DNA from: Candidatus Dojkabacteria bacterium
Lineage (GTDB): Bacteria; Patescibacteriota; Dojkabacteria; B142; WJKM01
Direction: 5' to 3'
NCBI GenBank assembly: GCA_041918255.1
Contig: JAYRWD010000026.1
Span: forward strand, 9,977 to 73,976
DNA: 64,000 nucleotides
In this document: positions 30,633 through 49,204 of the stretch, in pieces
Numbering within the stretch: the stretch's first letter is position 1
Layout of the letters: every line of letters starts with the position of its first letter
Position numbers and translations under genes: made by a program
Notes under the pieces: generated by a model
The model's database searches: none
What the model was told of the DNA's origin: nothing
What the model saw: the letters and a program-made list of their open reading frames with translations, nothing else

Positions 30633-30688
30633 CTGAGCAAAAGAAGGTAAAACAAGGTAAAATATTCATATAAAATATTAGAACTAGA

Positions 30689-31063: not shown

Positions 31064-31065
31064 CG

Positions 31066-31896: not shown

Positions 31897-31935
31897 GATA
31901 AGCCTATCCAGAACGTCTATAAATGTTACGCCAAT

Positions 31936-32688
31936 ATGGGTATGAAAAATAAAATATATTTATCATTCGCAACGCTCCTCACACTGTTTTCCTTTGCTAC
32001 GAGGGTAGCAGCTCAGGTTAATATTGATGTCCCAGACGGAAAAACCAAAATTGAGATAGATTATTTCAAACCATCGGCCTTTACAGATTTGATGAAGTTT
32101 GGGGCTTTAGGATTTGTGGGATATATCGCCATTTTCCTTGTTGGCTTTATGTTTATATATATCACCGTCCAAATAGCCATTTCCGCGGGCAAAATTATTC
32201 AAAGCCAAGGAGATTCTGGCAAACTCGAGGAAGGAGTTTCCGAAATCCAAAAATTTATGCGAGGGGTTTTGATAGCAATGTTATTTTTATTGGCATTTGT
32301 GGCGGTTGGAATCTTTATGGGAAGCGGAAATATTATGAAGTGGCCTTCTAAACTCGGACAATGTGGCGGGGGCGGGGTTTTGTTTAACGCAGAATATGAC
32401 GCCTCCCTGAAGAATGAAAAGATCTATGAGAAGGAAACGCAAGTACTATGTTGTAGAAATTTTGAAAGTTTGGACTTTGGGGACGAAAATACCGTCTTGG
32501 TTTCTCCAGTAGGGGGTATTAGAGGATTTAGCAAGGATGGACCTTCAGCAGGAAATCCATTCGCTATAGTCGTGGGAACCGAAACGGACGGAGGCTGGAT
32601 GTTTATCCTACCATCTGCAACAGGAGAATCTAGAGATTTACAATCGACCCAATCTGACCAAGAGAAATATGTTTGTTCGATTTATTAA
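31936..32688 (+). CDS. Pilin-topology paralog
   Basis: A 250-aa product with a signal peptide (…ATRVAAQ). Its TM hairpin is FGALGFVGYIAIFLVGFMFIYITV / VLIAMLFLLAFVAVGIFMG. A C-tail with CGGGG and CC follows. Confidence 0.55.
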   Translation: MGMKNKIYLSFATLLTLFSFATRVAAQVNIDVPDGKTKIEIDYFKPSAFTDLMKFGALGFVGYIAIFLVGFMFIYITVQIAISAGKIIQSQGDSGKLEEGVSEIQKFMRGVLIAMLFLLAFVAVGIFMGSGNIMKWPSKLGQCGGGGVLFNAEYDASLKNEKIYEKETQVLCCRNFESLDFGDENTVLVSPVGGIRGFSKDGPSAGNPFAIVVGTETDGGWMFILPSATGESRDLQSTQSDQEKYVCSIY

Positions 32689-32721
32689 GATTGCAACCTG
32701 AGGAGTTTCTTTGTATTATAT

Positions 32722-33387
32722 TTGAGAAAGCTAAAAATAATTAATATTATTTTAAAAAATATGAAGCAATTTAAAACATTGGCAAAAGTTGGTTTGGGTT
32801 TAGCTCTATCTTTGGCATCAACATATACAGTTGTAGCCGCTCAGTGTGGAGGTTGGTTGCCAGAATTCCTACAGGGGTTTGTGTGCGAGGATCCAGTAAA
32901 CAATTTAACAAACAGGGTGAAAGTGTTTTTCGTACTAGCTTTCGGAGCAGTAATACTAATGGGAGTTGTGTATACAATTTCGGCTGCGTTGAAGTTCATG
33001 CGAAGTAAGGGTGAAAGCGGAGAGATTGAAAATAGCCAAAAAGCAGTCACGGCGATTTTCTACGGAGTTGCTTCGCTTTTTGTTGGAGTGATTGGTATGG
33101 TTGTGGTCACACTATTCTTTTCTCCCACGGTTATTTTCCCTCAGCAAATTTGTATACAAGCCCCGGATAGCTACGGCTGTTTTGCCTGTCGTAATCCTAA
33201 GAAGGGTTCAAATGTTTCTTTCGTAGATATTTGTAATGCATGTAACGATGTGTCCGAGGCACCACTAAGTGATATTAGTGGAAATGTGACGTGTGCTGAT
33301 GATGTTCCCGCGAATATCTCCGATGATGATATAGTTCTAAAGCTTGATGAGGTAAAAACGGTTGGAACGAAAAAAGTTGGGGTCTAG
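32722..33387 (+). CDS. Pilin-topology paralog
   Basis: A 221-aa product with a signal peptide (…VVAAQ) followed by CGGW...C. Its TM hairpin is VFFVLAFGAVILMGVVYTI / AIFYGVASLFVGVIGMVVVTLFF. A Cys-rich tail follows. Confidence 0.55.
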   Translation: MRKLKIINIILKNMKQFKTLAKVGLGLALSLASTYTVVAAQCGGWLPEFLQGFVCEDPVNNLTNRVKVFFVLAFGAVILMGVVYTISAALKFMRSKGESGEIENSQKAVTAIFYGVASLFVGVIGMVVVTLFFSPTVIFPQQICIQAPDSYGCFACRNPKKGSNVSFVDICNACNDVSEAPLSDISGNVTCADDVPANISDDDIVLKLDEVKTVGTKKVGV

Positions 33388-33586
33388 ATTGGAACAGGAT
33401 TATTCAAATCCGCTTTCTTCAAACTGAATAAAAATTGACTTTATGCGATACCCGAAAAAGGCAACAAATGTGTGTCACACTGAGTTCATCGAGGTGCGAC
33501 ACTATCATATTTTTACCCCTCGACGTGCTTCTGCCAGAGGCAGACAGACAGGGTGACATAATAAATGTAGTTTCGTATAAAGTCTA

Positions 33587-34540
33587 ATGAAGTATAAATT
33601 GCTTTCTTTGTTTGCCATTGCTCTGACTGTTAGCACGGTTTTTTTCACCACGCCAGGAATCGCTCTGGTTAGTGCGCAAAGTCAAGAGGAAGTAAATCCG
33701 CTTTTCGATCTCAGTTCAACCGATCCAATCTATATAAATCTCAATTACGACTGTACAAATATTAAGTGGTCGGAAGGTGCGATAGGGATTTATAGAAAAG
33801 TCTATAAGTCCGGGGACAAATATTATGAAGCCAATCCTCGAATAAACGAAATCCAGCAATATCTAAATGGCAAGCCCTATGCCGAGACCTACTTTCTTTT
33901 TGAAGGCGAAACGGGATTGAGTTTAGAAGAGAGTTCTATTAACAAAAATGATTTCAATGCCACGCCATTCAACGAAATAAAGAGGATTGCTCCCTCGCCT
34001 TTTATTATTCCTAGTGATAATCCAGAGCCTATTTTGAAAGAATACGTTGGCATGCCCCTGTGTGATGGTGCCTATTCCTTTAGTGGAAACGATTTTCTTG
34101 CTCCAAATCAAAAGATGAGAGCAAGTCTCGATAATCAGAACGAAAGTTTCGGAGAGCCAAAAAGTTTTGTCCCAGCAAATTTCGTACCCCCTGTATTGCA
34201 GCAAGCGGAAAATTACTTCGTGGAGATAATATACATTTTTTGGAGTATTATTGGACTAGCAGCAGTTGGGCAGTTATTTGTCATAGGTTTGAAAATCCTG
34301 ACATCAAGCTTTAGCCCGGAGCAAAAAGGAGCTACGTTACGCTCGGTAGCATTATGGGTGGTCGGACTGGCATTGGCCATAGTGGCTATTCCACTTTTGC
34401 AATTTATTTTTAGAATTTTGGACATACAAGACACTAGATGCTTCAAATATACTGAGAATAATGAATTAGTTTACGATCTGACCGTTCCGGGTTTCACGTT
34501 CTTCTTTAATGATACATGTACGTCCGAGGAGAGCTTGTAG
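33587..34540 (+). CDS. Pilin-topology paralog with a roughly 170-aa ectodomain.
   Basis: A 317-aa product with a signal peptide (…LVSAQSQ). Its C-terminal hairpin is FVEIIYIFWSIIGLAAVGQLFVIGL / LRSVALWVVGLALAIVAIPLLQFIF. Confidence 0.55.
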   Translation: MKYKLLSLFAIALTVSTVFFTTPGIALVSAQSQEEVNPLFDLSSTDPIYINLNYDCTNIKWSEGAIGIYRKVYKSGDKYYEANPRINEIQQYLNGKPYAETYFLFEGETGLSLEESSINKNDFNATPFNEIKRIAPSPFIIPSDNPEPILKEYVGMPLCDGAYSFSGNDFLAPNQKMRASLDNQNESFGEPKSFVPANFVPPVLQQAENYFVEIIYIFWSIIGLAAVGQLFVIGLKILTSSFSPEQKGATLRSVALWVVGLALAIVAIPLLQFIFRILDIQDTRCFKYTENNELVYDLTVPGFTFFFNDTCTSEESL

Positions 34541-34608
34541 CGAACCTGTCCTTGCCAGAACTTCCCTAAATCCGTGATAATGTGTTTCACTAAATAACCC
34601 AAATTATT

Positions 34609-35769
34609 ATGTTCAAATTCATACATACAGCCGATCTTCACCTTGGGGCGAAGGCAGGATGGCTAGGTACTCGAGCAACAAGCCATAGAAAATTATTATT
34701 AGATACCTTTGCCCAAATTTGTGACGAGACGCGAAATAGGGGGGCAAACGCATTAGTTATAGCAGGGGATCTTTTTGATACCCCATATCCAAGTACTAAT
34801 ACCATAAATTATGTGCAATCTCGTTTAGAGGCATTAGCAAGGGGGGGCACAATGGTTTTAATTGTGGCAGGCAATCACGATCGCTATATTGATTCTTCGG
34901 TATATTCCAAACTGAAATTCTCAAATCCTCTCATCCATGTTTTCTCTCCAGAAAAAGTTGAGGTAATTGAGTCAACGAATTTTGCGGTTAGGTTTTTTTC
35001 GCAGAGTATAGCTCAAAGATTCTCAACATCCTCAACCCTTGGGCGACTCATAGATGCTCGCAAGAATGGTAGGATGGACGGCGGAGGTTTTACAGATATT
35101 GCGATTGTTCACGGATCAGTAGAATTAGGATCGAATACGACCAACCACGGGATATCAAAGGAGGAAATTACAAATTCTGGTTTCGCATATATAGCACTTG
35201 GCGATTGGCACGGATTATTGGAAGTATCAAACAAAGCAACAAAAGCTTGGTATCCAGGCTCACCTCAACCATTGGCTTTTGATCAGAAAATGTTTGGTCA
35301 TGTTCTGGAAATATCGGTCGAGCCCGGTGTAAATGAAAGAGTAGAAGTTATGCCAATTAAGATTTCTGAGTTATTTACACAGGAAGTTACATTTGATTGT
35401 TCAAAACAGGATAACCACCAAGGAGGCGGACAATCTTTATATGAACGTATAGACAGGACTATTACCGGACTATCAAATAAGAATTTGTTACTTGAAATGA
35501 AATTAAGTGGCATCATAAAGCCAGAAATGCCAATTAATTTAGGGGAGATATTGGAGGCCGATACGGATAAATTTTATTTATTACGAATCATAAATCTAAC
35601 GAAGATAGGTTTAACACAGGAAGAGATAGAAGCTATACCCGAGACTACGGTTTCTGGAAGACTAATCAGAATTGCTAAACACAGACTTGAGATCGAAAAA
35701 GACGAGAATGTACGCAAAATTATTGAGCAAGCCTTAGTGGAGGGATTACAAAAATTAAGCGAATTGTAG
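34609..35769 (+). CDS. SbcD/Mre11-family metallophosphoesterase, YhaO(SbcF)-like
   Basis: Calcineurin-like motifs IHTADLHLG, AGDLFD and AGNHDR. It is 386 aa and lies directly upstream of the SMC-like ATPase. Confidence 0.75.
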   Translation: MFKFIHTADLHLGAKAGWLGTRATSHRKLLLDTFAQICDETRNRGANALVIAGDLFDTPYPSTNTINYVQSRLEALARGGTMVLIVAGNHDRYIDSSVYSKLKFSNPLIHVFSPEKVEVIESTNFAVRFFSQSIAQRFSTSSTLGRLIDARKNGRMDGGGFTDIAIVHGSVELGSNTTNHGISKEEITNSGFAYIALGDWHGLLEVSNKATKAWYPGSPQPLAFDQKMFGHVLEISVEPGVNERVEVMPIKISELFTQEVTFDCSKQDNHQGGGQSLYERIDRTITGLSNKNLLLEMKLSGIIKPEMPINLGEILEADTDKFYLLRIINLTKIGLTQEEIEAIPETTVSGRLIRIAKHRLEIEKDENVRKIIEQALVEGLQKLSEL

Positions 35770-35855
35770 AGGATTTTTAGCGCGCCCGAAAACGCAAGCA
35801 TAACGTAACGATTATAATTTTTTATACTTTTTTGCAACACGTTGAAAAATAAATA

Positions 35856-37967
35856 ATGATCATAAAAAGTCTTCGAATAAACAACTTCAGACTCTTTCAG
35901 GATAGACAACTTTTTTTCTCTAGTGGTCTGAATATTGTGATTGGACCAAATGAAGCCGGAAAATCCACGCTTGTTTCTGCTCTGAAACACGCTCTGTATA
36001 CGGATCCTGTATCTAAATCAAAAATGATAGCAGCGGATATATCTGGATGGGACGAAGGGGATTCGCGTAAGGCGGAAATTGAAATAGAATTTGAAGCCGA
36101 AGGGATAAATTACGTATTTGAAAAGAACTTTCTGGGTAAAGAGACATTCTTAAAAGCTAAGAATGAAAATAGATGGCAATATAAAGGTAAAGAAGCGCTT
36201 GAAAAAATTGTTGAAATTTATGGCATACCCAATGTTGAAATGTTTGAAACTTCGGCCTCACTAAACCATGAAGATCTAGAAAAAGTACGAAAAAGTACAA
36301 CATTTGTAGCAGCGCTTCAGAATGCGTCTACCCAAGGAAGTAGGGATGGAAGAATCCAAGACATTTTGAGGCAGATCGATTTAGAGATTCAAAATCTTCG
36401 ACGTGGTATGGTTGCGCTGGCAAAAAATCCCGGGTTAATCCGAAGCGCTATGGATGATTTAAAGCGGTTAGAAATTGAAAAGGAGGAGAAAGGTGTAAGG
36501 TGGAAAGAACAGCAGGGTTTAATAGAAAAATACAAACAACTTGTAACAAGGAAGGATGAGCTTGAAGTAAAAGAAAAAGAGCTAGCCCGGATCATAGATG
36601 TAAGCGAAACCTATTACCGGAAGCAAAAGGAATATAACGAGATCAATACACAAAGGACTGAATTGGAGGAGAGAATCGAGAAAATCGAAGAGATTGAAGG
36701 AGAGTATAAAAAAATAGCGAATGAGTTGTTAGCGTTTGAATCGGAGAAACGTCAGAGCTACCTTGAAACTCAAAAGATATTAACAGAATATGAAAAAGAA
36801 ATTGATAGCTTAAATAATTCCGTTGCGGTTCTAAAGGGAAAGAAAAGGGAAACCATACTTAAAAAAGCAAAGGAGCAGCAGCTTTTTTTGAAAGGATTGG
36901 GTATTACTCTCGGGCTTGTCGGAATAGTTGCATCAGTGAAATATTGGGAATTCATATTTTTAGGATTGGGAGGAGTAGTTATGTTTCTACTTGCGGTCAA
37001 AATTCAAAAAATTTACGAAAAGTTTTTGCGTGTAAATGAGGATAGTCAGATAGAAGGTCTGAGGGAGCAGATTTTGCAGGAGAATACTAAGATAGAAATG
37101 GCACTATCGAAAATAGATATGGTTACGATTCAAGAATTGGATCACACAATACACGAATATGAAAAAAAATTGGTTAGGAAAGAAGAAAAGGGAAATGCTC
37201 TGATAAGCCTACTTGGAAATGAGAATCTTGAAAAACTGAAACAAAAAAAGAGTATCTTGGCGCAAGAGGCAGAGGGCATAAGGGCGGTATACCTAACGGA
37301 GGAAATCAAAATGGGTGTTTTAGACACTAGAGCCTTATCAGTTGATAGGGGTAATTATGTACAGGTGAGAAGAGAGCTTGAAGATGTGAGGGCGGATATA
37401 GCAAGACTTGAAGGAAGATTGGGAGTGGAGCAAATCTCGTTAGAAGAAATATCGGAAACAGAAGATCGGTATGATTTAGCAAAAGAGAAGTATAAAAACA
37501 GCAAAAATAAATTGGCAGTACTTACGTTGCTAAGCGATATGCTAGGCGAAGCTACGCAGGACACAACGGTGTTGGTGGCTCATGCGGTACGGGAAATCGT
37601 CGAAAAATATATAAAAGTAATTACAGAAGGAAAATATACTAGGGCAAGGTTGGATCGAGAATTAGAATTAGAAGTTTATTCTCCAGAAAAAAATGACTGG
37701 ATAAATCCCATGAAGTATCTGTCGTCGGGGGCGTGCGATCAGATTTTTTTCTTGGTACGGTATGGTTATTTCAAGCTTCTGTCTAGCGGGAAGCGGCCCT
37801 TTTTGGTATTAGATGATGCGTTTTTAGCGTTTGATAGTATTCGGATGAAGAGTGCTATGGAGCTTCTCAAAGTTTTAGCTGAGGAAAATCAAATAATTTA
37901 TTTAACCCATCGAAAGAATCTAGCTAAATACGGAGATACGCTGTACCTGTGCGAATGGTATAGATAA
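35856..37967 (+). CDS. SbcC/Rad50-like SMC-family ATPase with a central transmembrane hairpin, YhaN(SbcE)-like
   Basis: N-terminal Walker A IGPNEAGKST. There are long coiled coils. A mid-protein hydrophobic pair, GITLGLVGIVASVKYWEFIFLGLGGVVMFLLAV, takes the place of a CxxC zinc hook. The C-terminus carries the signature LSSGACDQ, Walker B LVLDDAFLAFD and the H-loop YLTHR. Confidence 0.7.
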   Translation: MIIKSLRINNFRLFQDRQLFFSSGLNIVIGPNEAGKSTLVSALKHALYTDPVSKSKMIAADISGWDEGDSRKAEIEIEFEAEGINYVFEKNFLGKETFLKAKNENRWQYKGKEALEKIVEIYGIPNVEMFETSASLNHEDLEKVRKSTTFVAALQNASTQGSRDGRIQDILRQIDLEIQNLRRGMVALAKNPGLIRSAMDDLKRLEIEKEEKGVRWKEQQGLIEKYKQLVTRKDELEVKEKELARIIDVSETYYRKQKEYNEINTQRTELEERIEKIEEIEGEYKKIANELLAFESEKRQSYLETQKILTEYEKEIDSLNNSVAVLKGKKRETILKKAKEQQLFLKGLGITLGLVGIVASVKYWEFIFLGLGGVVMFLLAVKIQKIYEKFLRVNEDSQIEGLREQILQENTKIEMALSKIDMVTIQELDHTIHEYEKKLVRKEEKGNALISLLGNENLEKLKQKKSILAQEAEGIRAVYLTEEIKMGVLDTRALSVDRGNYVQVRRELEDVRADIARLEGRLGVEQISLEEISETEDRYDLAKEKYKNSKNKLAVLTLLSDMLGEATQDTTVLVAHAVREIVEKYIKVITEGKYTRARLDRELELEVYSPEKNDWINPMKYLSSGACDQIFFLVRYGYFKLLSSGKRPFLVLDDAFLAFDSIRMKSAMELLKVLAEENQIIYLTHRKNLAKYGDTLYLCEWYR

Positions 37968-38137
37968 TTGTACGTGCACTTATGTTAGTAGGCTTTAGTC
38001 TTTTGTATATAAGCACAGAACAAGAAAATTATTTTGAGACCCAACAAACCTATGAGTAGATCAAAGCTCTTGATTGGAGGATTGCGGAATATATAGGCTG
38101 CTTTTGGTATACTGGAAGCGAATAATATAAGACTTAA

Positions 38138-39883
38138 TTGCCCGTGATTTTGAAAAAGATCAAGTATCAAAGGTTTACGATTTCAATTCTCCTTTTGAGT
38201 ATTTTTTTTGCGATTTCGACCATTCCAACTAATGCTCGCACCATTTCTGAAATTGAGTCGGAAATAAAACAGAAACAACAAGAACTTACTGAAGTTAATA
38301 CGACAATTGCCGAACTAGAAGAGAATATTATTAAGCAAAAAGCTGAGATGGAAAATGTTGTCGGAAGGCGTAATACCCTGAGGGCAGAATTAGCATTGAA
38401 CGCAAACCAAAAAAGTCTGATAGAGGAAGAGCTGCGCGACTTAAACAAGAACGAGATCTTAACAAAATTAGAGCAAGAAAAGAGAATTCTGACGCAGGAC
38501 CGATTAGTTTCTGAGGCATATGTGACATGGAGACAAATGAATACTTTTCGGATTTTGCTTCAGACCAATTCGGAAGATATTGTCAAAATTTCGACATATC
38601 AGAACTCCGTTTCTGAGCGCGAACAGAAAAATATTGAGCAACTCGAAACAGAGTTAGAAGCAATACAAAAAGAGTTGAACGAAAATGAAATTAAAAAGGC
38701 ACAATATCAGGCCGAAATTGATAAAATTGACGCGCAAGTCAAGGTAACAGAAAGATTATTGGCAGAGCTAGATTCAAAAATTTTAGCTAATCAAAACGAC
38801 GTTGCGAATTATCGAGGTAGATTAGGATCTATTCAATCCGCGATCGACGAATTGACGGCGGAGCAGAAAAGAATATTAGAGGCCGAATCTGTATTTTTGG
38901 GTAAGGTCAGCAATGGGGGCACAAAGACTATTAAACAAGGACAAATCTATTTTCAGGGTATTGGAAGGGAGGCCTATCAGGGACATGGTGTAGGCATGTC
39001 TCAGTTCGGAGCTTTGGGTGCGGCACTGGCCGGATGGGATGCGGAGAAAATAGTTGAATTTTATTATCCTGGTGCGGAGGTTGAGACGTATGGAAAAGGC
39101 AAAAAAATAAGTGTAGAAGGATATGGAAGTATGGATATTGAAGATTATGTAGCGGGAGCTGGTGAGGTACCCGACCATTCTTGTGAAGAATTAGATTTAA
39201 AATTTGACTCAAAGAATGTGTGGCAATGTTGGCCAGAAGAAGCCATAAAAGCTCAGGCAATAGCTTTCCGAACATACGGGATTCATAGCACAATCAGCGG
39301 AGGTACCATATGTACTTCGGCTAAATGTCAGGTATATAAAGGTGGGACGAATAAAAAATGGGCGGCCGAGGCCACAGAGGGTAGAGTTATCATGTATGAT
39401 AATGAACCAATAGCAGCTTTTTATAGCTCTGACAATCATAATGGATGGGGGAATGGAAATAATGATACTGTGTGGAGCAGTATGTCCGGTGTAGGAGAAC
39501 CAAAAAAATATTTGCGTGCAGTAAATGACAAAAAGATTGCTTTTCATTATACCTATACGGATTGGGGATGGAGAACAAACGGATATTCAATTTCAGATGT
39601 TGATAAAATGTTAACTTGGAGTGTGAATTCAGAAAAATCTACGAGTGGTTACAAAGAATTTTTAAAAACAATAAAAACAAAAGTAGGGACTCTAAAGGGC
39701 ATGGATTTTGAGAGGGATCCCTCTGGAAGGGTGAAAAGAGTCAAATTGATTGGGGAAAAGGGAGGTGAGTATATAGCTGGATGGCTTTTCAAATCTGCTT
39801 GGAATATATGGGTAGGGAATGAAATGCCCAGTGGGGAAAAGGATTTCATTTATAGCCTGACATATTACATGCGAGTTGGATAA
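38138..39883 (+). CDS. Secreted coiled-coil protein with a C-terminal SpoIID/LytB-like peptidoglycan hydrolase domain.
   Basis: A signal peptide, then about 230 aa of heptad-rich coiled coil, then the SpoIID-type motifs GHGVGMSQFGALGAA and AFYSSDNHNGWGN. Confidence 0.6.
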   Translation: MPVILKKIKYQRFTISILLLSIFFAISTIPTNARTISEIESEIKQKQQELTEVNTTIAELEENIIKQKAEMENVVGRRNTLRAELALNANQKSLIEEELRDLNKNEILTKLEQEKRILTQDRLVSEAYVTWRQMNTFRILLQTNSEDIVKISTYQNSVSEREQKNIEQLETELEAIQKELNENEIKKAQYQAEIDKIDAQVKVTERLLAELDSKILANQNDVANYRGRLGSIQSAIDELTAEQKRILEAESVFLGKVSNGGTKTIKQGQIYFQGIGREAYQGHGVGMSQFGALGAALAGWDAEKIVEFYYPGAEVETYGKGKKISVEGYGSMDIEDYVAGAGEVPDHSCEELDLKFDSKNVWQCWPEEAIKAQAIAFRTYGIHSTISGGTICTSAKCQVYKGGTNKKWAAEATEGRVIMYDNEPIAAFYSSDNHNGWGNGNNDTVWSSMSGVGEPKKYLRAVNDKKIAFHYTYTDWGWRTNGYSISDVDKMLTWSVNSEKSTSGYKEFLKTIKTKVGTLKGMDFERDPSGRVKRVKLIGEKGGEYIAGWLFKSAWNIWVGNEMPSGEKDFIYSLTYYMRVG

Positions 39884-39950
39884 TTGAAGAAGCACGACTT
39901 CGAAGTCACTTGCCAAGTTTGTAAAAAGATAGTAATTTAGGTATATAACA

Positions 39951-42155
39951 ATGCAAATTGATAGAAATAGAATAAAAACTCAGTATTTCGTTGGGGCTTC
40001 TCGTAAGACTCAGTGGTCAAGCGTGTATATATTCTCACCCCATATACCCGCCGTTTATGAAAAGATGGGCGATCTGTTTGCCATTATTACGTTATCGAGC
40101 CCCCCTTCATTTGATTCTAATACCGCAGGAAATCTCTTGATAGACGCACTGCAAGAGGCATATTTTGATGGCCCAAATGAGAATCCATTTGAAGGAATTG
40201 ATTATGCAGTGAAGTCGGCAAAGAAACGTTTAGAGGATCTAATTGAGAGTGATGAAATAATTTCGCAAACTGGAATCGAACTTAGTTTACTATTGGTAGT
40301 TATTCATGAAGAAAAGGCTTATTTAGCCCGCATCGGCGAAGGAGCAATTTTTGGATTCAGAGAGGGCGAAATGGTTGAATTCACTACTAGTTTGAAAGAT
40401 CCCGATGGCAAGGGACATATGAAAACTGCAAGTCTAAGGGTTAGTCCTGGAGATCGATTTGCGATTCTGACTAAAGAAATTCAGCAAAATATTTCAAAAG
40501 ATGAAATTGAAGCAAGTCTCGTGAAGTTTAAGCTAGAGAATATTGAAAATAAAAAGTTTTCAGATGAGGCCTTGAGCGCGATTTTACTTATTGAGGTCGA
40601 GAAAGAGGAGAGGGCAGATATACTAGAGATCAAAGAGTCAATTCAGAATGACAGTGTCAAAGATGAAGATTTCAAAGGGATGTATAGAGAATTTGAAACA
40701 CGAACTTTGAAGGAAAGGGGGGATGAAGAAGCCGAATATAAATTTTTGTCCGCATCAACTTATCATTCTACACCAATATTTATGAGGCTCAGAAGGCAAG
40801 TCAAAGTAGTAATGAATTCTAGATCGTTGGCTAAGGTTATTATATATGGGCGTAATGTCCTCGGGGTACTATTCGGACTATTGGGATCTTTACATCGAAC
40901 CATAAAGTCAAAAGTACTAAAGATACCTCCTAAAGAAATGCTGTATATAAATGATTTGAACAAAGGTGGTAATAAAAGACCAGCAATATTTTTCTTTGTT
41001 TTATCAATTTTATTGATTTACTTTATTATTACAGGAGTTTCGAATTCAAGAGAACGCGCAAAGCTTGCATTTGAGGCTGAGCAAACGATCGTAACATCTG
41101 AAGCTGAACTGACTGAGCTAGAAAATAAAGTAGCCTCTATCATTCTTACCTACGGTAACGAAATAGATAGGGATGCAGCTTTTCGAAAAGTAGACGAGAT
41201 TAAATTAAAATTAGAAGCACTGAAGGTAGAAGAAGTATCTGAGAAACAAAATGCAATTCTAGATAGATTGGAAGAAGTGAATCGTAAGCTTCGTAGGATT
41301 ATTCAGGTCAGAGAAGTTAAAGTGGTCAAAGATTTTGCAGTAATAGAGGGTAGCCAAATAGCTGATATTGATATCGGAGCAGAACAAATTTTTGTGGCCG
41401 ACGGTGGTGATGGCAAAATTTTAGCATTTGATAGGGCAGGTGGGAGTATGAAACAATTAGCCACCGGCTTAAAAGGTCTAATCTCTATAGCATATTCAAA
41501 TCTTGGGCATTTAGCATTTATTGACGGTGATCCTCAAAGAGTTTTAGGTCTTATCAGACTGTCTGATAATATATTGACTCGGGTACCAGGTATCGATGCA
41601 ATTAGGCTCGGCAGGGTAAATGATATCGATGCTTACAAAGTTGGGGAGAACGATAATCGCATTTATGCTGTTCGACCAGAGTCTTCACAAGTTATTCAAA
41701 TGCGTCAATCGGCAGGAGAGTATGTTTTGCCCGAAATTAGACTTGAGAATAAAGATTTGGGGAAAATTTCAGATCTTGAGGTAAGTGACGGGAGGATCTA
41801 CATTCTGTCTCAGGACAAAGGAATTAAGGCTTTTTTTGGAAACGGGGAGGTAGCTTTGAAGCTGTACGGTCTTATGCAACCAGAATTATGGAATTCGGCA
41901 AATAATATATATGTGGATTCAAAATATATATATTTAAGCAATGATTCTATGAAGAGGATTGCGGTTTTCTCAAAATTTAGACCATCGGATGAAGGAGCGG
42001 TGGATTTTATCGCACAGTATGATTTAACCGGATTGCCTCAGAGCGGTAAACTCGGCGAATTGGTTGCCAGTCAACAACAGAGAACTATATATGTCGTACT
42101 CGGAAGTAAGATAGTGAAACTTGATATGTCAGCTATGGAGGAATTCACATACTAG
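39951..42155 (+). CDS. Hypothetical 734-aa single-pass membrane protein: N-terminal cytoplasmic domain, coiled coil, and a C-terminal repeat (beta-propeller-like) domain.
   Basis: A TM helix (PAIFFFVLSILLIYFIITGV) lies mid-protein. The N-domain is faintly PP2C-like (ARIGEGAIFGF), but the DGHGG motif is absent. The C-terminal 300 aa are rich in repeated G/D-containing strands. Confidence 0.4.
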   Translation: MQIDRNRIKTQYFVGASRKTQWSSVYIFSPHIPAVYEKMGDLFAIITLSSPPSFDSNTAGNLLIDALQEAYFDGPNENPFEGIDYAVKSAKKRLEDLIESDEIISQTGIELSLLLVVIHEEKAYLARIGEGAIFGFREGEMVEFTTSLKDPDGKGHMKTASLRVSPGDRFAILTKEIQQNISKDEIEASLVKFKLENIENKKFSDEALSAILLIEVEKEERADILEIKESIQNDSVKDEDFKGMYREFETRTLKERGDEEAEYKFLSASTYHSTPIFMRLRRQVKVVMNSRSLAKVIIYGRNVLGVLFGLLGSLHRTIKSKVLKIPPKEMLYINDLNKGGNKRPAIFFFVLSILLIYFIITGVSNSRERAKLAFEAEQTIVTSEAELTELENKVASIILTYGNEIDRDAAFRKVDEIKLKLEALKVEEVSEKQNAILDRLEEVNRKLRRIIQVREVKVVKDFAVIEGSQIADIDIGAEQIFVADGGDGKILAFDRAGGSMKQLATGLKGLISIAYSNLGHLAFIDGDPQRVLGLIRLSDNILTRVPGIDAIRLGRVNDIDAYKVGENDNRIYAVRPESSQVIQMRQSAGEYVLPEIRLENKDLGKISDLEVSDGRIYILSQDKGIKAFFGNGEVALKLYGLMQPELWNSANNIYVDSKYIYLSNDSMKRIAVFSKFRPSDEGAVDFIAQYDLTGLPQSGKLGELVASQQQRTIYVVLGSKIVKLDMSAMEEFTY

Positions 42156-42179: not shown

Positions 42180-42635
42180 ATGGAAAGTAAGCAATACGCA
42201 AAAAATAAAGCCGCGTTTCATGATTATAGAATTATTGAGGAATTTGAAGTAGGTCTTGTTTTACAGGGATGGGAGGTTAAATCTATCCGGGTAGGGGCTG
42301 TCAGTCTTAAAGAAAGTTACATTGCCCCGGTAGGAAAAGAATTATTGATTTATGGAATGAATATTGCAAAGTGGAAGTATACACTTAGGGTAGGGGAACA
42401 GATGGAATTGCGACCGCGCAAATTACTAGTAAATAGAAAGGAAATAGAGCATATTGTCTTTGAGCAAAAAAGAAATGGTGTAACAATCATCCCGCTATCA
42501 ATATACGATCGACGTGGACATATAAAATTGAAAATAGCACTGGGGAAGGGATTACGTAAATATGATAAAAGGGAAGTCGAAAAATCCCGAGAAATCATGA
42601 AAGGGAGTAGGGAAAAACAGGCGGAAAGATGGTAG
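42180..42635 (+). CDS. smpB: SsrA-binding protein SmpB
   Basis: NKAAFHDYRIIEEFEVGLVLQGWEVKSIR, with a basic C-terminal tail. It is 151 aa. Confidence 0.9.
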   Translation: MESKQYAKNKAAFHDYRIIEEFEVGLVLQGWEVKSIRVGAVSLKESYIAPVGKELLIYGMNIAKWKYTLRVGEQMELRPRKLLVNRKEIEHIVFEQKRNGVTIIPLSIYDRRGHIKLKIALGKGLRKYDKREVEKSREIMKGSREKQAERW

Positions 42636-43151: not shown

Positions 43152-45623
43152 ATGATTCAAGCTGTCCGCATATTAGCACAAATGGATTTTTTCTCCTTAG
43201 TTATGGACCCTGCGTCATTCGTAGATGAAGCAAGCAATGACCCTTCGTTTCTGATAATGGTTTGCCTTATGGCAATATTGGGTCTTGTAATTTTGATTCT
43301 AGCGTATAAGCTATTTATGAAGGGAGTGATGCATGCTTCTATGGAAAAAAAGTCATTAAGCTCAGTTCTCTTTGAAGTTAGACTTCCGCATACGAATGAG
43401 GTCGAGATACAATCAGCCGATCAAATGCTAACGGGGTTTCTTGGCATTGAAAGAGAACTGAAGGGGCTACAAAAATGGTTTGGTTCGAAATATTATATTA
43501 GTTTTGAAATTGTAGCGTTGCCTGAGACTATAAGATTTTTTGTAAATGTCCCAAAGAAATTAGCGACACTTGTAGAAAAACAAATAAATGGTACTTATCC
43601 TGAGGGTGAAGTAATAAGAACGGATGAATATAATATATTTGGACCTGGGCAGAAGGTAGAATTCTGTTCATTGAAGTTAGCTGAGGATCCGTATAAGCCC
43701 ATCCGGACATATGAAGAGCTTTCGCAAGATGGTTTAAGCAGCATTACCTCCGTTATGAATAAAATGGGTCCTGGTGATGCTATGGCGTTACAGATTGTTA
43801 TTACTCCCTCATCAGGAGAGTGGCGCAAAGATGGTCGAAAATACGTAAATAAAATACGAGAGAATAATTCTGATCCGGAAAAATCAAAGATAGAGGTAGA
43901 AGACGAAATACTTGCTGCAATTGAAAAGAAGGCAGAAAAGCCTGGATTTGAATCAGTTGTGAGGATTGTAAGTGTTTCTACGTTAGGAGAAATAGCTAAA
44001 TCAAATTTGGATAACATGGTTTACGCGTTTGATCAGTTTGCTAATCAAAATGGAAATAGGTTTAAAAAAGTTTCATACAAGAAAAGAAAGGAACAAAGGG
44101 AATTCATGAAGTCCTTTTTGTACAGATTCCCCTCGAAAGCGATGATTTTAAACTCCTCTGAATTAGCTACTATTTTTCACTATCCAAATAGCAAAATTAC
44201 TACTCCGCACATACATTGGCTTACCTCGAAACGTGCTCCAGCAAGTGGAGAAGTCTTATCTCATTTCGAAAATGCAGGGGTATACCTAGGAGTGAATGAA
44301 TATAGGGGCACGAAAAGAAAGATATTCATGCGCTATGACGATAGGCGACGACATTTTTATTATGTTGGTAAAACAGGTTCTGGTAAATCTGTAATGTTGC
44401 AGCATATGGCCTATCAGGATATTTTAAACGGACAGGGATTAGCATTCCTGGATCCTCACGGGGACGCCGTTGAATGGCTTATGGATCGAATACCGGCCGA
44501 ACGTGTCGAGGACATTATTTATTTCAACCCTGCGGATACGGATCGTCCAATAGGTATGAATATCATGGAATGGTATACCGAACATGATAAACACATTATT
44601 GTGAATGGTTTCTTGGGTCTTCTTAATAAATTATTTGATCCTTACAATCAAGGTATTACTGGACCACGTTTCGAGCAGGCCGTAAGGAATGCGATGTTGA
44701 CTGTTATGGCAAAAAAAGGCACTAGCTTGGCTGAAGTGATGACACTTTTACAAAATGACAAGATAGCAGAGAAATACTTTCCATATTTAAACGATGATAT
44801 TGTAAAACGCTATTGGACAGAACAAATAGCCCATACCCAGGAATTTCACAAATCGGAAATTTTAGGATATATAACCTCTAAGTTTGACAGATTTATCACA
44901 AATAAATTGATGCGAAATATTATTGCTCAAAGCAAATCTGGCTTTGATTTCCGTACAGTTATGGATGAAGGCAAGGTTTTATTAATTAACTTATCCAAGG
45001 GATTAATCGGGGAAGAAAACTCACAATTCCTAGGGCTATTATTGATACCCAAAATGTTGCAAGCAGCGATGAGTAGGGCGAATATTGAAGCTGGATCAAG
45101 GCGGGATTTTTATCTATATGTAGACGAGTTCCAGAATTTTGCGACGCCTGATTTTGCTCAAATTCTTTCGGAGGCTCGAAAATACAGGCTTAACCTAATT
45201 GTCGCTAACCAATACATCGCCCAAATGACGGATGAGATCCGTGATGCTGTTTTCGGTAATGCAGGGTCTATAGGTAGTTTCAAAGTGGGAGTGAATGATG
45301 CGCAGTACTTGGCGAATGAATTTGAGCCAGTATTTAATCAAAACGACTTAATCAATTTGGAAAATTTGAATATGTATATCAAGTTACTTGTAAAAGGTGA
45401 ATATCCTCCTCCATTTTCGTTAAAATTAGATACGGATTTGGTCTTCAAAACACCACCGAATAAAGAAATTGGTCAGCTTGTTAGGGAACTATCGCGACTG
45501 AAGTATGGGAAAGACGCAAAGCTGGTCGATGCCGAGATAAAGGCAAGAGAACAAGAAGATGGACCAGGCAATATTGTATCACAACCACCGCCTCCGGCGT
45601 ATAAGCCACCGCTGAGTAGCTAA
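43152..45623 (+). CDS. VirD4/TraG/TraD-family type IV coupling-protein-like P-loop ATPase
   Basis: An N-terminal TM helix. Walker A YYVGKTGSGKS is followed by LDPHGD, which resembles the T4CP DPKGE motif. Walker B is YVDEFQNFA, with GNAGSIGSFKVG beyond it. The product is 823 aa. Confidence 0.55.
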   Translation: MIQAVRILAQMDFFSLVMDPASFVDEASNDPSFLIMVCLMAILGLVILILAYKLFMKGVMHASMEKKSLSSVLFEVRLPHTNEVEIQSADQMLTGFLGIERELKGLQKWFGSKYYISFEIVALPETIRFFVNVPKKLATLVEKQINGTYPEGEVIRTDEYNIFGPGQKVEFCSLKLAEDPYKPIRTYEELSQDGLSSITSVMNKMGPGDAMALQIVITPSSGEWRKDGRKYVNKIRENNSDPEKSKIEVEDEILAAIEKKAEKPGFESVVRIVSVSTLGEIAKSNLDNMVYAFDQFANQNGNRFKKVSYKKRKEQREFMKSFLYRFPSKAMILNSSELATIFHYPNSKITTPHIHWLTSKRAPASGEVLSHFENAGVYLGVNEYRGTKRKIFMRYDDRRRHFYYVGKTGSGKSVMLQHMAYQDILNGQGLAFLDPHGDAVEWLMDRIPAERVEDIIYFNPADTDRPIGMNIMEWYTEHDKHIIVNGFLGLLNKLFDPYNQGITGPRFEQAVRNAMLTVMAKKGTSLAEVMTLLQNDKIAEKYFPYLNDDIVKRYWTEQIAHTQEFHKSEILGYITSKFDRFITNKLMRNIIAQSKSGFDFRTVMDEGKVLLINLSKGLIGEENSQFLGLLLIPKMLQAAMSRANIEAGSRRDFYLYVDEFQNFATPDFAQILSEARKYRLNLIVANQYIAQMTDEIRDAVFGNAGSIGSFKVGVNDAQYLANEFEPVFNQNDLINLENLNMYIKLLVKGEYPPPFSLKLDTDLVFKTPPNKEIGQLVRELSRLKYGKDAKLVDAEIKAREQEDGPGNIVSQPPPPAYKPPLSS

Positions 45624-45901: not shown

Positions 45902-47347
45902 TTGAAATATTTAAAATATCAATGCGTATTATGTCTGCTAGTTATTTCACTTTGCTTGAGCATAAAGTTAGTGTCGAGGGTTGAAGCCGCTTCTGTTGAT
46001 ATTGATGGGAATGGCGTGCTTACTTATACTGCCGAAGCTGGGGAAACAAATCTTTTGACTTTTGAGCAAAGCAGAGATGATTATATCTTTAGGGAAAGCG
46101 CAATCAATATTTCGGTAGAAAGTGATGACTGTACTGGGGATGGGACAAAGGCAGTCACTTGTGATAATAGTAATGTGGAGAGTATAGAAATTTATCTGGA
46201 GGATGAGAACGATAAAGTCTGGATAGAATCGTTTGAACACGTAGTGACATTAGACCTTGGCAGCGGAAGCGACCAAGCGACATGGTACTTCGATAACAGA
46301 TTCACCCAAGAGGATGGAGAGATAATGGGCGGAGGCGGAGCTGATACTTTGATTGTAGAAGGTGATTCTACAAGCGACGAGTTTGATGTGCTTGAAAGCG
46401 GAGGAAATTTAAGGATCAAGCGAAACGTACCGACCCCGAAAGCGTATTTAGATATAAGCGATTTTGCATATTTAGATATCAAACTTGAAGGAGGGGATGA
46501 TACACTCTCGGTTCTTGGAAATCTAGATGACGTAGAGGATATTTCTTCCATGGAGATTACCATAGAGGGTGGCGAGGGGAATGATGAAATCGATGCCTCT
46601 GATATTGATGATGGGATCTTAGACGATATGAATTTGTTAATATTTGGCGATGAAGGTGACGATCTATTAAATGGTAGTAAAGGGAAAGATTCCATAGATT
46701 GTGGAGAAGGGGATGACCAGTATGAAGATAACGGTGGATTTGATGAAATTGACGATACGTGTAATGAAACAGTGGTGGTCGCAACTGAGCCATTCTCCGA
46801 TATAGATGGAAACATTTTCAAGTCTTACATCGAGTCACTGTATGCAAATGGTATAGTCTCGGGTAGTCAGGGAAGATTTTTTCCAAATGAGTATCTCACA
46901 AGAGGACAATATGCGAAAGTTATATTTTTGGGCTTGGAATTACCCGTTAATGTAGGTTGCGGTGGGTTCCCCGATGTGAATGGAACTGATGTATTTTATA
47001 ATTATATTACCTCTTTGAAATGTCACGGGATTGTGAGTGGCAAAAGCAATGGAACTTATGGGTCTGAGGAACCAATTAGTAGGGGAGCGGCAGCGAAGAT
47101 AGCAGTGGAGGCATTGAAATACAAAAACGCTAATATTTTCTTTACTGATGGTTCTATACAGTTCAACGATTTGAATACTTCAAATCCTTTTTATGGCTAT
47201 ATTATTCTAATTGCTTCAGCAAGGGTTAATGGCGAGGCGATAATGGGGGGTAGTAATGGGAACTTTATGCCGAGTTCATTTATGACCAGAGGGGAAATGG
47301 CAAAAGTAGTGAGCAACACCCGCAGTTATTGGCAAGCTAGCGTGTAA
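45902..47347 (+). CDS. Surface protein with an Asp-rich (Ca-binding-like) region and three C-terminal S-layer-homology (SLH) domains.
   Basis: A signal peptide, a D/G-rich repeat region (GDEGDDLLNGSKGKDSIDCGEGDD), then three repeats of the type FxDIDGNIFKSYIESLYANGIVSGS...FFPNEYLTRGQYAKVI. Confidence 0.65.
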   Translation: MKYLKYQCVLCLLVISLCLSIKLVSRVEAASVDIDGNGVLTYTAEAGETNLLTFEQSRDDYIFRESAINISVESDDCTGDGTKAVTCDNSNVESIEIYLEDENDKVWIESFEHVVTLDLGSGSDQATWYFDNRFTQEDGEIMGGGGADTLIVEGDSTSDEFDVLESGGNLRIKRNVPTPKAYLDISDFAYLDIKLEGGDDTLSVLGNLDDVEDISSMEITIEGGEGNDEIDASDIDDGILDDMNLLIFGDEGDDLLNGSKGKDSIDCGEGDDQYEDNGGFDEIDDTCNETVVVATEPFSDIDGNIFKSYIESLYANGIVSGSQGRFFPNEYLTRGQYAKVIFLGLELPVNVGCGGFPDVNGTDVFYNYITSLKCHGIVSGKSNGTYGSEEPISRGAAAKIAVEALKYKNANIFFTDGSIQFNDLNTSNPFYGYIILIASARVNGEAIMGGSNGNFMPSSFMTRGEMAKVVSNTRSYWQASV

Positions 47348-47421
47348 TGCTCCAGGGTGGACTCGAACCACCGACCCCCGCTTTATAAGAACGATGCTCT
47401 AACCGACTGAGCTACTGGAGC
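47348..47421 (-). tRNA. tRNA-Ile (anticodon UAU)
   Basis: Minus-strand sequence GCTCCAG-TA-GCTC-AGTCGGTTA-GAGC-A-TCGTT-CTTATAA-AGCGG-GGGTC-GGTGG-TTCGAGT-CCACC-CTGGAGC-A. All stems pair, with two G-U wobbles in the anticodon stem, and CCA is not encoded. Its 3' end abuts the SLH gene stop. Confidence 0.8.
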
Positions 47422-47582
47422 GTTTTTGTGGTTAGAACTGGTTGTTCTCGAATCGAGATTTTCCGTCCTACTTCCCAACACAGGAAGCAAAGGGTTTCTT
47501 TCTAAAATAGATTCTATCACGAAACTCATGCGCTGACCTAGCGATCATGCAAGGATTGTTTCCGTGAAAATAGCAAAAAAAT

Positions 47583-48461
47583 CTATAGGGAGGCGGTTTT
47601 GCTGGAATTTAAATTTCGTTTTGTTTTTACCATCTCTAGATACTTTTCAGTGCTGGTAATACGTTTGTGACCTACTATTTCCGCGATTTGTTCAAGTGGT
47701 ACACCGTGTTCCAGCTGGAAGACAATGAAAGTATTTCGTATATCATTGACAGTTGCGTCATCTATACCGGATTTTTTGAACGTATTATTGATAGTTGTAC
47801 GGATATTCCTAATCAATACTTGCTTTCCAGATTTGGTGGTAAATAAGTAGCCTTCGTCATCTTGCGGACGGGGGCGAATTTTGAGATATTTTCTGATAGC
47901 TTCTACGCACGTCTCGTTTAGGATTATAGTTCGGGCCGGATTGCTCGCATAGGATTCGATGGTAGCGGTTGGGACTTTGGCATCAAGCTCGAGCTGGGAA
48001 ATTTTTAACCTGGACAATTCGCCGATCCGCATGCCTGTTTGCAATAAAACTTCTACCATGGCGTAAAGCCTTGGGCTTGATCTAGCCGTATCCCGGAGTG
48101 CTTTATATTCTAGACTATTGAGAATTCGTCTCTGTTTAGTTTCAAACTTTGGATGCACTATACCTTCTGCAATATTGGCGTTTACATGATTTTCGGAGTG
48201 CAAAAATTTGAACAAAGTCCGAAAACTGTTAATTTTTCTAGAAATTGTTTTTAAGGTGAATTTCTGCTCGGTTACCAGCTCTTGGATATATAACTCTAGA
48301 TGGTTTGTTTTGTAATCTGATAATAGAGAAATTTCGTTTTTGTATCTGCCAAATAATTGCTCGATATCCTTCTTGTAGGCTATGATAGTTGAGGGAGAAC
48401 GTTTTTTTTCTTTAAGATTGGCAATAAAGAGTTCTAGAGCTTGAGAATGTGGAATTGACAT
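47583..48461 (-). CDS. Tyrosine site-specific recombinase (XerC/XerD or integrase family)
   Basis: An N-terminal SAM-like core-binding domain. The C-terminal catalytic region is IRNTFIVFQLEHGVPLEQIAEIVGHKRITSTEKYLEM, with the nucleophile Tyr in KYLEM. It is 292 aa. Confidence 0.75.
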   Translation of the reverse strand: MSIPHSQALELFIANLKEKKRSPSTIIAYKKDIEQLFGRYKNEISLLSDYKTNHLELYIQELVTEQKFTLKTISRKINSFRTLFKFLHSENHVNANIAEGIVHPKFETKQRRILNSLEYKALRDTARSSPRLYAMVEVLLQTGMRIGELSRLKISQLELDAKVPTATIESYASNPARTIILNETCVEAIRKYLKIRPRPQDDEGYLFTTKSGKQVLIRNIRTTINNTFKKSGIDDATVNDIRNTFIVFQLEHGVPLEQIAEIVGHKRITSTEKYLEMVKTKRNLNSSKTASL

Positions 48462-48612: not shown

Positions 48613-49038
48613 ATGAACAAAAACATCTTACTTAGGAAAATGTATCAAATTCTTAGACTTGAGAAGGGTCTTAGTGTGAAGATATCACCCAGTACAATGG
48701 CGCTTTTCATGCTATTTGTGCTTTTTTCGATCCTTCTGATGAGAAATATATATTCAAGCCTATCGGCACTTGACAAGTATTCGGTTTTGGAGAAAGAGAG
48801 TAAGGTTTTAGAGGAGCTTAAACAAACCAATACTAGACTTAAACAGGAAAAGGATTACTATTCCTCGCCATATTTCGTAAAGCTCTATGCTCGTGAAAAT
48901 TTAGGACTAGTCCAGCCCGGGGAAGTGATTTACTACATCCAAAGGGATAGAAATTTTGCTTATGAAGATAAGTTTGAGAATTATGAACCGATTGCGATAG
49001 TTTCTAATAAAAGTATGTGGATTGATTTGATACTATAG
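48613..49038 (+). CDS. Septum formation initiator, FtsB/DivIC family
   Basis: A single N-terminal TM helix, a coiled coil, and the ARENLGLVQPGEVIY motif. Confidence 0.6.
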   Translation: MNKNILLRKMYQILRLEKGLSVKISPSTMALFMLFVLFSILLMRNIYSSLSALDKYSVLEKESKVLEELKQTNTRLKQEKDYYSSPYFVKLYARENLGLVQPGEVIYYIQRDRNFAYEDKFENYEPIAIVSNKSMWIDLIL

Positions 49039-49065: not shown

Positions 49066-49137
<72 letters not shown>

Positions 49138-49204
49138 CGTACTGGCTCCAAAACCCTATTCTCCAGAAAATATGATCATAACGATTTTTACAAAGCCTTC
49201 TGGG

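Follow-up and report, generated by a model that had tools for sequence, protein, structure and literature searches.

The subject of this analysis is a 64-kb window (the whole stretch of 64,000 nucleotides analyzed, from contig JAYRWD010000026.1 of a Candidatus Dojkabacteria bacterium), and in particular a gene for a tRNA-Ile with the anticodon UAU, which lies between a gene for a Xer-like tyrosine recombinase and an 18-kb block containing genes similar to those of type IV secretion systems (T4SSs). In our interpretation, in which we have considerable confidence, this is an ancestral chromosomal tRNA-Ile(UAU) that reads AUA codons, situated beside a conserved Xer-type enzyme in an origin-proximal, T4SS-like neighborhood.

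The tRNA-Ile(UAU) gene and its codon

The tRNA-Ile(UAU) gene (47348..47421, minus strand, 74 nt) is one of four tRNAs found by ARAGORN in the window, called as tRNA-Ile(tat), and is matched end to end by the Rfam tRNA model (68.5 bits, E = 8e-13). In an alignment of five Dojkabacteria copies (94% identity) all 105 cloverleaf pair cells are standard (100%), three pairs have both members substituted, and the acceptor and T stems show compensatory changes; pairing falls to 25–56% in slid registers. The anticodon stem of the window copy contains two G-U pairs, and the gene lacks the CCA end that is encoded in some of its relatives. It carries A73, C4-G69, C5-G68, U12-A23, A37 and A38 and has no C3-G70 pair, and both C4-G69 and C5-G68 are invariant among the Dojkabacteria copies. 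The positions A73, C4-G69, U12-A23, A37 and A38 are those that we take to be Ile identity positions, from the identity set of the E. coli isoleucyl-tRNA synthetase (IleRS). Under the criteria of Silva et al. 2006 for Ile-type and Met-type acceptor signatures (PMC1635315), the combination of C4-G69, C5-G68, A73 and the lack of C3-G70 makes the acceptor Ile-type rather than Met-type. Judged by its fold and its Ile-type identity positions, the element is a genuine tRNA-Ile, and the genomically encoded UAU anticodon, first proposed in a reading made without database searches (the sequence-only reading), is confirmed by ARAGORN, Rfam and covariation.

The 5′ end of the tRNA is separated from the recombinase stop codon by a spacer of 161 bp (47422..47582, minus strand, measured on the sequence), in agreement with the distance of about 160 bp given in the sequence-only reading. 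A consensus scan found no sigma-70-like promoter match on the minus strand of this spacer, which makes it possible that the tRNA is co-transcribed with the recombinase gene; counts from the promoter and terminator consensus scan were not above those of shuffles. At the other side the tRNA 3′ end (A73, 47348) abuts, with zero spacing, the TAA stop codon (47345-47347) of a convergent gene encoding an SLH-domain protein. The 18-kb locus had been described as abutting the tRNA 3′ end, and the plus-strand block 28515-47347 does end at the tRNA.

AUA is a heavily used codon in this genome. Of the 1558 Ile codons in 47 window genes, 530 (34%) are AUA, which corresponds to 29 per 1000 codons; AUA is commoner than either AUC or AUG, and is used in dnaA, infB, argS and serS. 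At 381 AUA sites the orthologs from other species have Ile in 40%, Val in 18%, Leu in 14% and Met in 5.5%, a substitution profile like that of AUU and AUC sites and unlike that of AUG sites (Met 33%). Because the profile at AUA sites matches the former and differs from the latter, AUA specifies Ile in the window genes. The share of AUA among Ile codons, together with the Ile, Val and Leu found in orthologs at these sites, means that tRNA-Ile(UAU) is functional and heavily needed, reading AUA as a major codon of an AT-rich genome.

Lysidine is the textbook essential anticodon modification by which bacteria tell AUA (Ile) from AUG (Met). IleRS enzymes that accept U34 are expected to have Arg or Lys at the position of E. 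coli W905, or to be of type 2. We propose that IleRS would charge tRNA-Ile(UAU) by means of A73, C4-G69, U12-A23, A35-U36 and A37/A38 while tolerating U34, and that U34 would pair with the A at the third position of AUA. AUG would be avoided through the intrinsically weak pairing of U34 with G in the UAU anticodon context, possibly with help from the ribosome. The logic of AUG avoidance is carried over from Mycoplasma mobile, where the binding of tRNA-Ile(UAU) with unmodified U34 on the ribosome of the species itself is strong at AUA and weak at AUG (PMC3575796), and from a Bacillus subtilis tilS-deletion suppressor, where tRNA-Ile(UAU) with unmodified U34 gives a misincorporation of about 1e-3 at AUG (PMC3919564). 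The sequence-only reading held that a UAU anticodon needs a specific wobble modification; because unmodified U34 suffices in these two cases, reading AUA well and AUG weakly, a dedicated modification is not established as a requirement. The window contains no ileS, no IleRS gene was found near tRNA-Ile(UAU), and the class-I synthetases beside UAU tRNAs in the loci that we fetched (given L numbers here) are all ValRS (L004, L005, L016, L044, L080, L089 and L122). We note that the ValRS of L005 (19262-20879, minus strand, 1122 aa) contains an inserted histidine-phosphatase domain (His_Phos_1, ribazole-phosphatase-like).

The distribution of such tRNAs was surveyed with a generic UAU-anticodon-loop pattern on a tRNA body, with one genome per species, yielding at least 119 loci. 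ARAGORN reports tRNA-Ile(tat) in 116 of the 119 matches listed, and among these matches A73 is present in 113 of 115 parsed UAU tRNAs, a pair other than C3-G70 in 113 of 115, and C4-G69 in 85 of 115. At least 50 verified UAU tRNAs are from records with names of the candidate phyla radiation (CPR), i.e. 42% of the matches listed, which is not a frequency; they include four Dojkabacteria, Woesebacteria, Parcubacteria-type groups, Peribacteria, Magasanikbacteria and others, and the remaining matches listed are from Planctomycetota, Ignavibacteria, Micrarchaeota and scattered others. Bacterial UAU tRNAs have been described as a rarity, with nine tilS-less species in one survey (PMC3575796) and a TAT-anticodon gene in 19 species in another (PMC4013482), and the literature searched contained no paper connecting lysidine or tilS with CPR lineages. 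The description of the UAU anticodon as uncommon in the sequence-only reading thus holds among classically studied bacteria and fails for the CPR, where it is common and vertically inherited; the survey points to genomic UAU anticodons being routine in much of the radiation, in which AUA can make up a third of the Ile codons. The tRNA lies beside an ortholog of the recombinase in L004-L008, L013, L015, L024, L054, L066, L074, L077, L083, L087 and L096, and as judged from these comparisons it is an ancestral, vertically inherited chromosomal gene in Dojkabacteria and their relatives.

Several database records encountered in the survey have titles that appear to be wrong at the class or domain level (L013, L022, L024, L048, L062, L064, L066, L083, L090 and L091). 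For example, recombinase, VirD4-like and tRNA genes of the CPR type are present on contigs titled Bathyarchaeia or uncultured Gammaproteobacteria, and a record titled Saccharibacteria encodes an FtsH that is 78–90% identical to Yanofskybacteria/Paceibacterota proteins.

A conserved origin-proximal neighborhood and its recombinase

The tRNA-Ile(UAU) gene is part of a conserved origin-proximal neighborhood with the order tRNA-fMet, DivIC/FtsB, recombinase, tRNA-Ile(UAU), a variable slot, a VirD4-like ATPase, and SmpB. In the window these are represented by an initiator tRNA-fMet (CAU) (49066..49138, plus strand), called by ARAGORN and Rfam, kept in relatives, and having initiator features by published criteria (a C1xA72 mismatch, A11-U24, G12-C23 and A29G30G31/C39C40U41; PMC1635315); a DivIC/FtsB-like septum formation initiator gene (48613..49038, plus strand; Pfam DivIC 7e-10, supported by synteny), which is divergent from the recombinase gene and keeps its position in relatives; the recombinase gene itself (47583..48461, minus strand); a gene for a 481-aa surface protein with three Pfam SLH matches (45902..47347, plus strand) in the variable slot; a gene for a VirD4/TraD-like coupling ATPase (a type IV coupling protein, T4CP) with a DUF8128 N-terminal region (43152..45623, plus strand; Pfam, NCBIfam and a precomputed DUF8128 assignment), convergent with the recombinase gene; and smpB (42180..42635, plus strand; Pfam SmpB 1e-42). 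The dnaN (20435-21562) and dnaA (21770-23164) genes (together 20435..23164, minus strand, from Pfam) are about 25 kb from the tRNA, where the cumulative GC skew reaches its minimum, and rnpA (49205-49591) and rpmH (49757-49939), both on the minus strand and identified by Pfam (Ribonuclease_P and Ribosomal_L34), lie to the right of the recombinase. The window thus spans the chromosomal origin, and the long plus-strand block therefore consists simply of leading-strand genes.

The relationships with other genomes show several patterns. First, L004, L006 and L007 share the order tRNA-fMet, DivIC, recombinase, tRNA-Ile(UAU), VirD4-like ATPase, a small open reading frame (ORF), SmpB, and a protein of 740–780 aa, with recombinases that are 64%, 55% and 51% identical to the window copy, respectively; the block is syntenic in these loci and in L074, and smpB is at the same position in all four. 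Secondly, VirD4-like homologs with 45–71% identity adjoin the recombinase and tRNA-Ile(UAU) genes of 12 non-redundant loci (L004, L006, L007, L013, L015, L024, L054, L066, L074, L083 and L087, plus the same-species L001-L002). Those in L074 (Dojkabacteria), L087 (Woesebacteria, complete genome CP055307), L015 (Patescibacteria), L054, L013, L024, L066 and L083 are the more distant, with recombinases at 40–49% and ATPases at 45–51% identity (tblastn of the window proteins). Thirdly, the recombinase and ATPase genes converge on the tRNA that lies between them, with the exception of L024, in which the tRNA is outside the pair; the strand of the tRNA varies by lineage, being that of the recombinase in some and that of the ATPase in others. 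The slot that separates the tRNA from the ATPase gene is also variable, and is empty in L004, L013 and L087, contains the SLH-domain protein in the window, a pentaxin/LamG protein and an ORF of unknown function in L007, and a DUF4352 protein and small ORFs in L006. A different arrangement is seen in Parcubacteria-type loci (L010, L030, L042, L047, L052, L062, L068, L079, L081, L094, L102 and L112), in which tRNA-Ile(UAU) is directly downstream of ftsH on the same strand and often heads a tRNA array (Val, Leu, Phe, Gly).

The 292-aa recombinase, assigned from Pfam, NCBIfam, alignments with PDB structures and an ortholog alignment, has a catalytic domain (Phage_integrase, PF00589, 5e-27) and a SAM-like N-terminal domain (Phage_int_SAM_1, PF02899, 4e-10), and its best structure matches are XerA (5hxy, 3e-21) and XerD (1a0p), with full-length alignment. 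The top-ranking NCBIfam models are XerA (130 bits against a cut-off of 220), XerD (121 against 330) and XerC (115 against 335), such that it falls below every named-Xer equivalog cut-off (115–130 against 220–335 bits). The residues R145 (Arg-I), R242 (Arg-II), H265 (His-III) and Y274 (the Tyr nucleophile) are kept. However, the canonical R-K-H-R-H/W-Y hexad is not complete, with two of six residues differing: the His-II position is occupied by N239, an invariant Asn (VNDIRNTF; VND[I/L]R across loci), and the position of the catalytic hairpin Lys by P175, the GKGxK motif being replaced by S-N/H-P-x-R, with an alignment of the hairpin that may be imprecise. The variant active site is common to 14 Dojkabacteria orthologs and 14 CPR loci (L004-L007, L013, L015, L024, L054, L066, L074, L077, L083, L087 and L096), and because it is kept in these orthologs and in the same-locus CPR recombinases it appears to be a conserved trait of a subfamily and not a product of decay. 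It is an undescribed detail. A further PDB match, 9i5v chain 14, has canonical Xer-type motifs (HVLRH, NKER) and was set aside as uninformative. We note that this 401-aa chain is deposited as 'Ribosome-associated translation inhibitor RaiA'; its residues 9–282 are Xer-type, with roughly 100 more residues after them.

Homologs of the recombinase are about 290 aa long, 45–66% identical, and annotated as Candidatus Dojkabacteria (WS6), a class-level CPR lineage. No second tyrosine recombinase is present among window ORFs of 100 aa or more. Xer recombinases act at dif sites near the terminus, usually with FtsK. No convincing dif-like palindrome was found beside the recombinase gene, and no half-site of the B. 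subtilis dif type in the 64-kb window, which does not reach the terminus. From its conservation and gene order, the recombinase is best described as the conserved chromosomal Xer-type enzyme of its lineage and not as the integrase of an island, and by conservation and context we infer that it would serve as a dimer-resolution Xer. The sequence-only reading had offered a chromosomal Xer as a fallback, and this was essentially right, the gene being conserved and syntenic, with the reservation that the protein falls below the cut-offs and has an incomplete hexad.

That reading also raised the possibility of integration at the tRNA: the 18-kb block would be a mobile element inserted at the tRNA 3′ end by the adjacent recombinase. 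The 3′ ends of tRNAs are classic attachment sites, the block contains T4SS-like genes (pilin-like and VirD4-like), and the segment from the tRNA to the VirD4-like gene differs in content among relatives. Moreover, in the Dojkabacteria relative L006 the 3′ end of tRNA-Ile(UAU) recurs some 210 bp downstream as a 17/18-nt direct repeat, so the tRNA 3′ end has probably been used as an integration site at least once. In this region of L006 (10946-11246 and 11255-11420) the repeat extends 4 nt past the tRNA and bounds hairpin-rich non-coding DNA, followed by two copies of a hairpin repeat of about 50 nt, an arrangement resembling the scar left by a small insertion at tRNA-Ile(UAU). In the window, however, there is no second copy of the tRNA 3′ end anywhere in the 64 kb, using probes of 14–30 nt and allowing up to 1–4 mismatches, nor was the direct repeat suggested near 28.5 kb found; the direct-repeat families at 24–50 kb are short chance matches. 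The recombinase gene is on the 5′ side of the tRNA, outside the block and among divIC, tRNA-fMet, rnpA and rpmH. The GC content is 0.38–0.41 throughout the window, and the block does not differ from the rest of it in either the ATA share of Ile codons (0.335 versus 0.343) or GC3 (0.350 versus 0.342). The remainder of the 18-kb locus (28515..42155, plus strand; Pfam and GC skew), in which the genes are co-oriented with replication, contains T4SS pilin-like genes (30689-31063 and 33587-34540), SbcD (34609-35769), SbcC (35856-37967) and a SpoIID-like gene (38138-39883), all on the plus strand and identified by Pfam, as well as genes of unknown function; thus smpB, sbcC, sbcD and the SpoIID-like gene would be housekeeping cargo inside the supposed island. 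Gene order is also kept in species with only 46–64% recombinase identity, and the recombinase, tRNA and ATPase genes stay together across CPR classes. Finally, T4SS clusters of the CPR are chromosomal and without relaxases; a 2025 study reports that in Patescibacteria they frequently lie close to dnaA/dnaN and that thousands of genomes have VirD4 homologs (bioRxiv 10.1101/2025.01.22.634366). We therefore give almost no credence to the integrated element, which the missing direct repeat and the conserved synteny refute for this window, and conclude that the 18-kb block is the kind of chromosomal T4SS-like region that Patescibacteria typically have, with housekeeping genes interspersed. One consequence for annotation is that a tyrosine recombinase beside a tRNA in a CPR genome should not be taken as an island boundary.

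A separate question is whether the recombinase, tRNA-Ile(UAU) and VirD4-like ATPase genes form a functional or historical module rather than a chance neighborhood. In one version they would be what remains, after domestication, of a conjugative element inserted at the tRNA in an early CPR ancestor; in another the Xer-like enzyme would work with the VirD4-like ATPase, a translocase of the FtsK/HerA superfamily, by analogy with XerD-FtsK, and the atypical active site might then reflect a changed activity. The convergent pair around the tRNA recurs in the 12 non-redundant loci (Dojkabacteria, Woesebacteria CP055307 and unclassified Patescibacteria; 40–64% identity for the recombinase and 45–71% for the ATPase), the tRNA stays between the two genes even though its strand is flipped between lineages, the Asn at His-II and the loss of GKGxK are common to all of the recombinases in this arrangement, and DivIC/FtsB adjoins the recombinase. 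Furthermore, most VirD4 homologs of the CPR are encoded at a distance from virB4 and the gene is non-essential in Southlakia, suggesting exaptation (bioRxiv 10.1101/2025.01.22.634366). Nonetheless, reduced genomes may share a gene order that has no functional meaning, the ATPase has neither an FtsK-gamma-like domain nor a match to the FtsK_SpoIIIE Pfam model, no dif-like site is nearby, and in Parcubacteria-type CPR the same tRNA is downstream of ftsH without the other two genes. We regard a module as improbable on balance, while noting that the grouping of the three genes is itself an undescribed detail.

Other features of the window include yidD in the origin region with dnaN and dnaA (20435-23566), adjoined by genes for a LexA-like repressor and a helix-turn-helix protein, and a 2345-aa ORF (54672-61709, plus strand) in which a response-regulator receiver domain at the N terminus is unusually combined with right-handed beta-helix/NosD repeats and, at the C terminus, a CarboxypepD_reg domain. 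Contigs that are near-identical to the one described here are present in GCA_964578695.1 and in two sequencing runs.

Sole or auxiliary decoder of AUA

We lean, with some reservation, towards the view that tRNA-Ile(UAU) is the sole AUA decoder in Dojkabacteria and that both tilS and tRNA-Ile2(CAU) are absent from this lineage. Neither gene is present in the 64-kb window. A useful control is the cultured Saccharibacterium Southlakia epibionticum, in which tilS (SEML1_0730) is directly upstream of ftsH and was scored essential in two of three analyses, and in which the gene table has a single tRNA-Ile (PMC10633639 supplement). The ftsH gene is within the locus in about 20 CPR loci with tRNA-Ile(UAU), and no tilS or other PP-loop protein gene was found upstream of it in 12 of these loci; the position is occupied by tRNA-Met/EF-P in L006, L007 and L054, by S1 in three loci, by ArgRS in one and by Trp/TyrRS in one, with ORFs without a match in the rest. 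These upstream ORFs were considered as TilS candidates and rejected, since the Pfam matches are to S1, ArgRS, Trp/TyrRS or EF-P, or there is none. Homologs of FtsH were also tried as a route to tilS-positive control loci and led to Yanofskybacteria/Paceibacterota relatives of L062, not to Saccharibacteria. In 1.8 Mb of fetched loci, a small local sample, neither tblastn with E. coli TilS nor a scan for SGGxDS revealed a TilS-like sequence. The non-initiator CAU tRNAs of L006 and L007 have C3-G70, G4-C69 and G5-C68 and are elongator Met tRNAs. Because the tilS-positive Southlakia appears to be without a UAU tRNA, these observations, from one literature control and from local context, suggest that tilS and the UAU tRNA replace each other instead of occurring together.

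As to the origin of the tRNA, its acceptor stem is typical of tRNA-Ile2(CAU), which suggests that the Dojkabacteria tRNA-Ile(UAU) may descend from an Ile2-type gene in which C34 was replaced by U. When metagenomes were scanned for this tRNA body with a CAU anticodon, the matches listed were dominated by unrelated Met- and Ile2-type tRNAs, and no CAU tRNA among them is in a recombinase/VirD4-like context.

Several points weigh against our overall interpretation. The window covers 64 kb of a genome of about 0.7–1 Mb, and tilS, tRNA-Ile2(CAU), ileS and U34-modifying enzymes may lie elsewhere. The argument from the position upstream of ftsH has one literature control, and tilS is not always beside ftsH. 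The CPR share among the matches listed is not a true frequency, and the class labels of some third-party annotation (TPA) assemblies are unreliable. Loss of tilS is not a CPR-wide rule, since Southlakia has a tilS that scores as essential. The recombinase, for its part, misses the Xer cut-offs and is without two of the six canonical catalytic residues. Lastly, some bacteria carry both decoding systems, as documented for Lactobacillus casei and Lactobacillus plantarum, Cyanothece and Ferrimonas (PMC3575796).

This coexistence, the essential-scoring tilS of a cultured CPR bacterium, and the inspected share of the genome (about 7%) are consistent with a rival explanation, that tRNA-Ile(UAU) has a redundant or auxiliary role in reading AUA, beside TilS and a tRNA-Ile2(CAU→LAU) encoded elsewhere. 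It is a serious possibility, to which we attach less weight than to a sole decoder, because AUA is a major codon (34% of Ile), because a single UAU tRNA kept with compensatory changes across a whole class fits a primary decoder, because the Southlakia-type tilS position is without tilS in 12 CPR loci with a UAU tRNA, of which L006 and L007 are from Dojkabacteria, and because Southlakia, the one tilS-positive CPR genome examined, appears to have no UAU tRNA.

A broader scenario, which we consider rather unlikely in its entirety, is that Dojkabacteria and many other CPR lineages dropped TilS and tRNA-Ile2(CAU) entirely, that a tRNA-Ile(UAU) derived by C34→U reads AUA, a major codon, in their place, and that, in the branch to which this genome belongs, the tRNA is held between the active-site-variant recombinase and the VirD4-like ATPase, which form a functional unit. 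If it is true, the CPR would be by far the largest natural clade to use U34 for AUA. The known exceptions to lysidine are a handful of species, and the tRNA described here adds a lineage-wide case of this known but unusual way of decoding. If tilS is missing, the CPR would also offer a natural system for studying how the ribosome, IleRS and tRNA context keep U34 off AUG, and TilS would no longer be a universal bacterial marker or drug target.

Relationships to known systems

The recombinase resembles XerC/XerD, XerA, XerS and XerH in being about 290 aa long, with a SAM-like N-terminal domain and a catalytic domain, and in being chromosomal and conserved in its lineage. It departs from all of them in having Asn for His-II, a replaced hairpin Lys motif and low equivalog scores, and its gene is about 25 kb from oriC with no dif found nearby. 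The 18-kb block shares with the MPF-FATA-like T4SSs of Patescibacteria the VirB2/pilin-like genes, a VirD4-type coupling protein, proximity to dnaA/dnaN and the lack of a detected relaxase; the report describing those systems (bioRxiv 10.1101/2025.01.22.634366) does not mention a recombinase or tRNA, and the linkage of coupling protein, Xer-like enzyme and tRNA is apparently undescribed there. There are also similarities to tRNA-targeted islands, integrative and conjugative elements, and prophages of the P4 type, with a tyrosine recombinase less than 200 bp from a tRNA and T4SS-like genes nearby, but the window differs in having no att repeat, no compositional shift, housekeeping cargo, a recombinase on the wrong side of the tRNA, and synteny across classes.

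The closest parallels for the tRNA are in decoding. In the B. subtilis suppressor tRNA-Ile1(G34U) a UAU anticodon with unmodified U34 replaces the lysidine system (Kohrer et al. 2014, PMC3919564); that tRNA is derived from the GAU-containing tRNA-Ile1, whereas the Dojkabacteria tRNA has the C4-G69/C5-G68, non-C3-G70 stem typical of Ile2(CAU) genes. Mycoplasma mobile, Bifidobacterium adolescentis and Neorickettsia sennetsu likewise have a UAU anticodon on an Ile-type body with A73 and C4-G69 (Taniguchi et al. 2013, PMC3575796), and as in decoders of the M. mobile type AUA is read as Ile in an AT-rich, reduced genome. The difference is one of extent, with the tRNA described here being fixed over a class-level lineage and common in the radiation rather than confined to isolated species, and with AUA being a major codon, at 29 per 1000.

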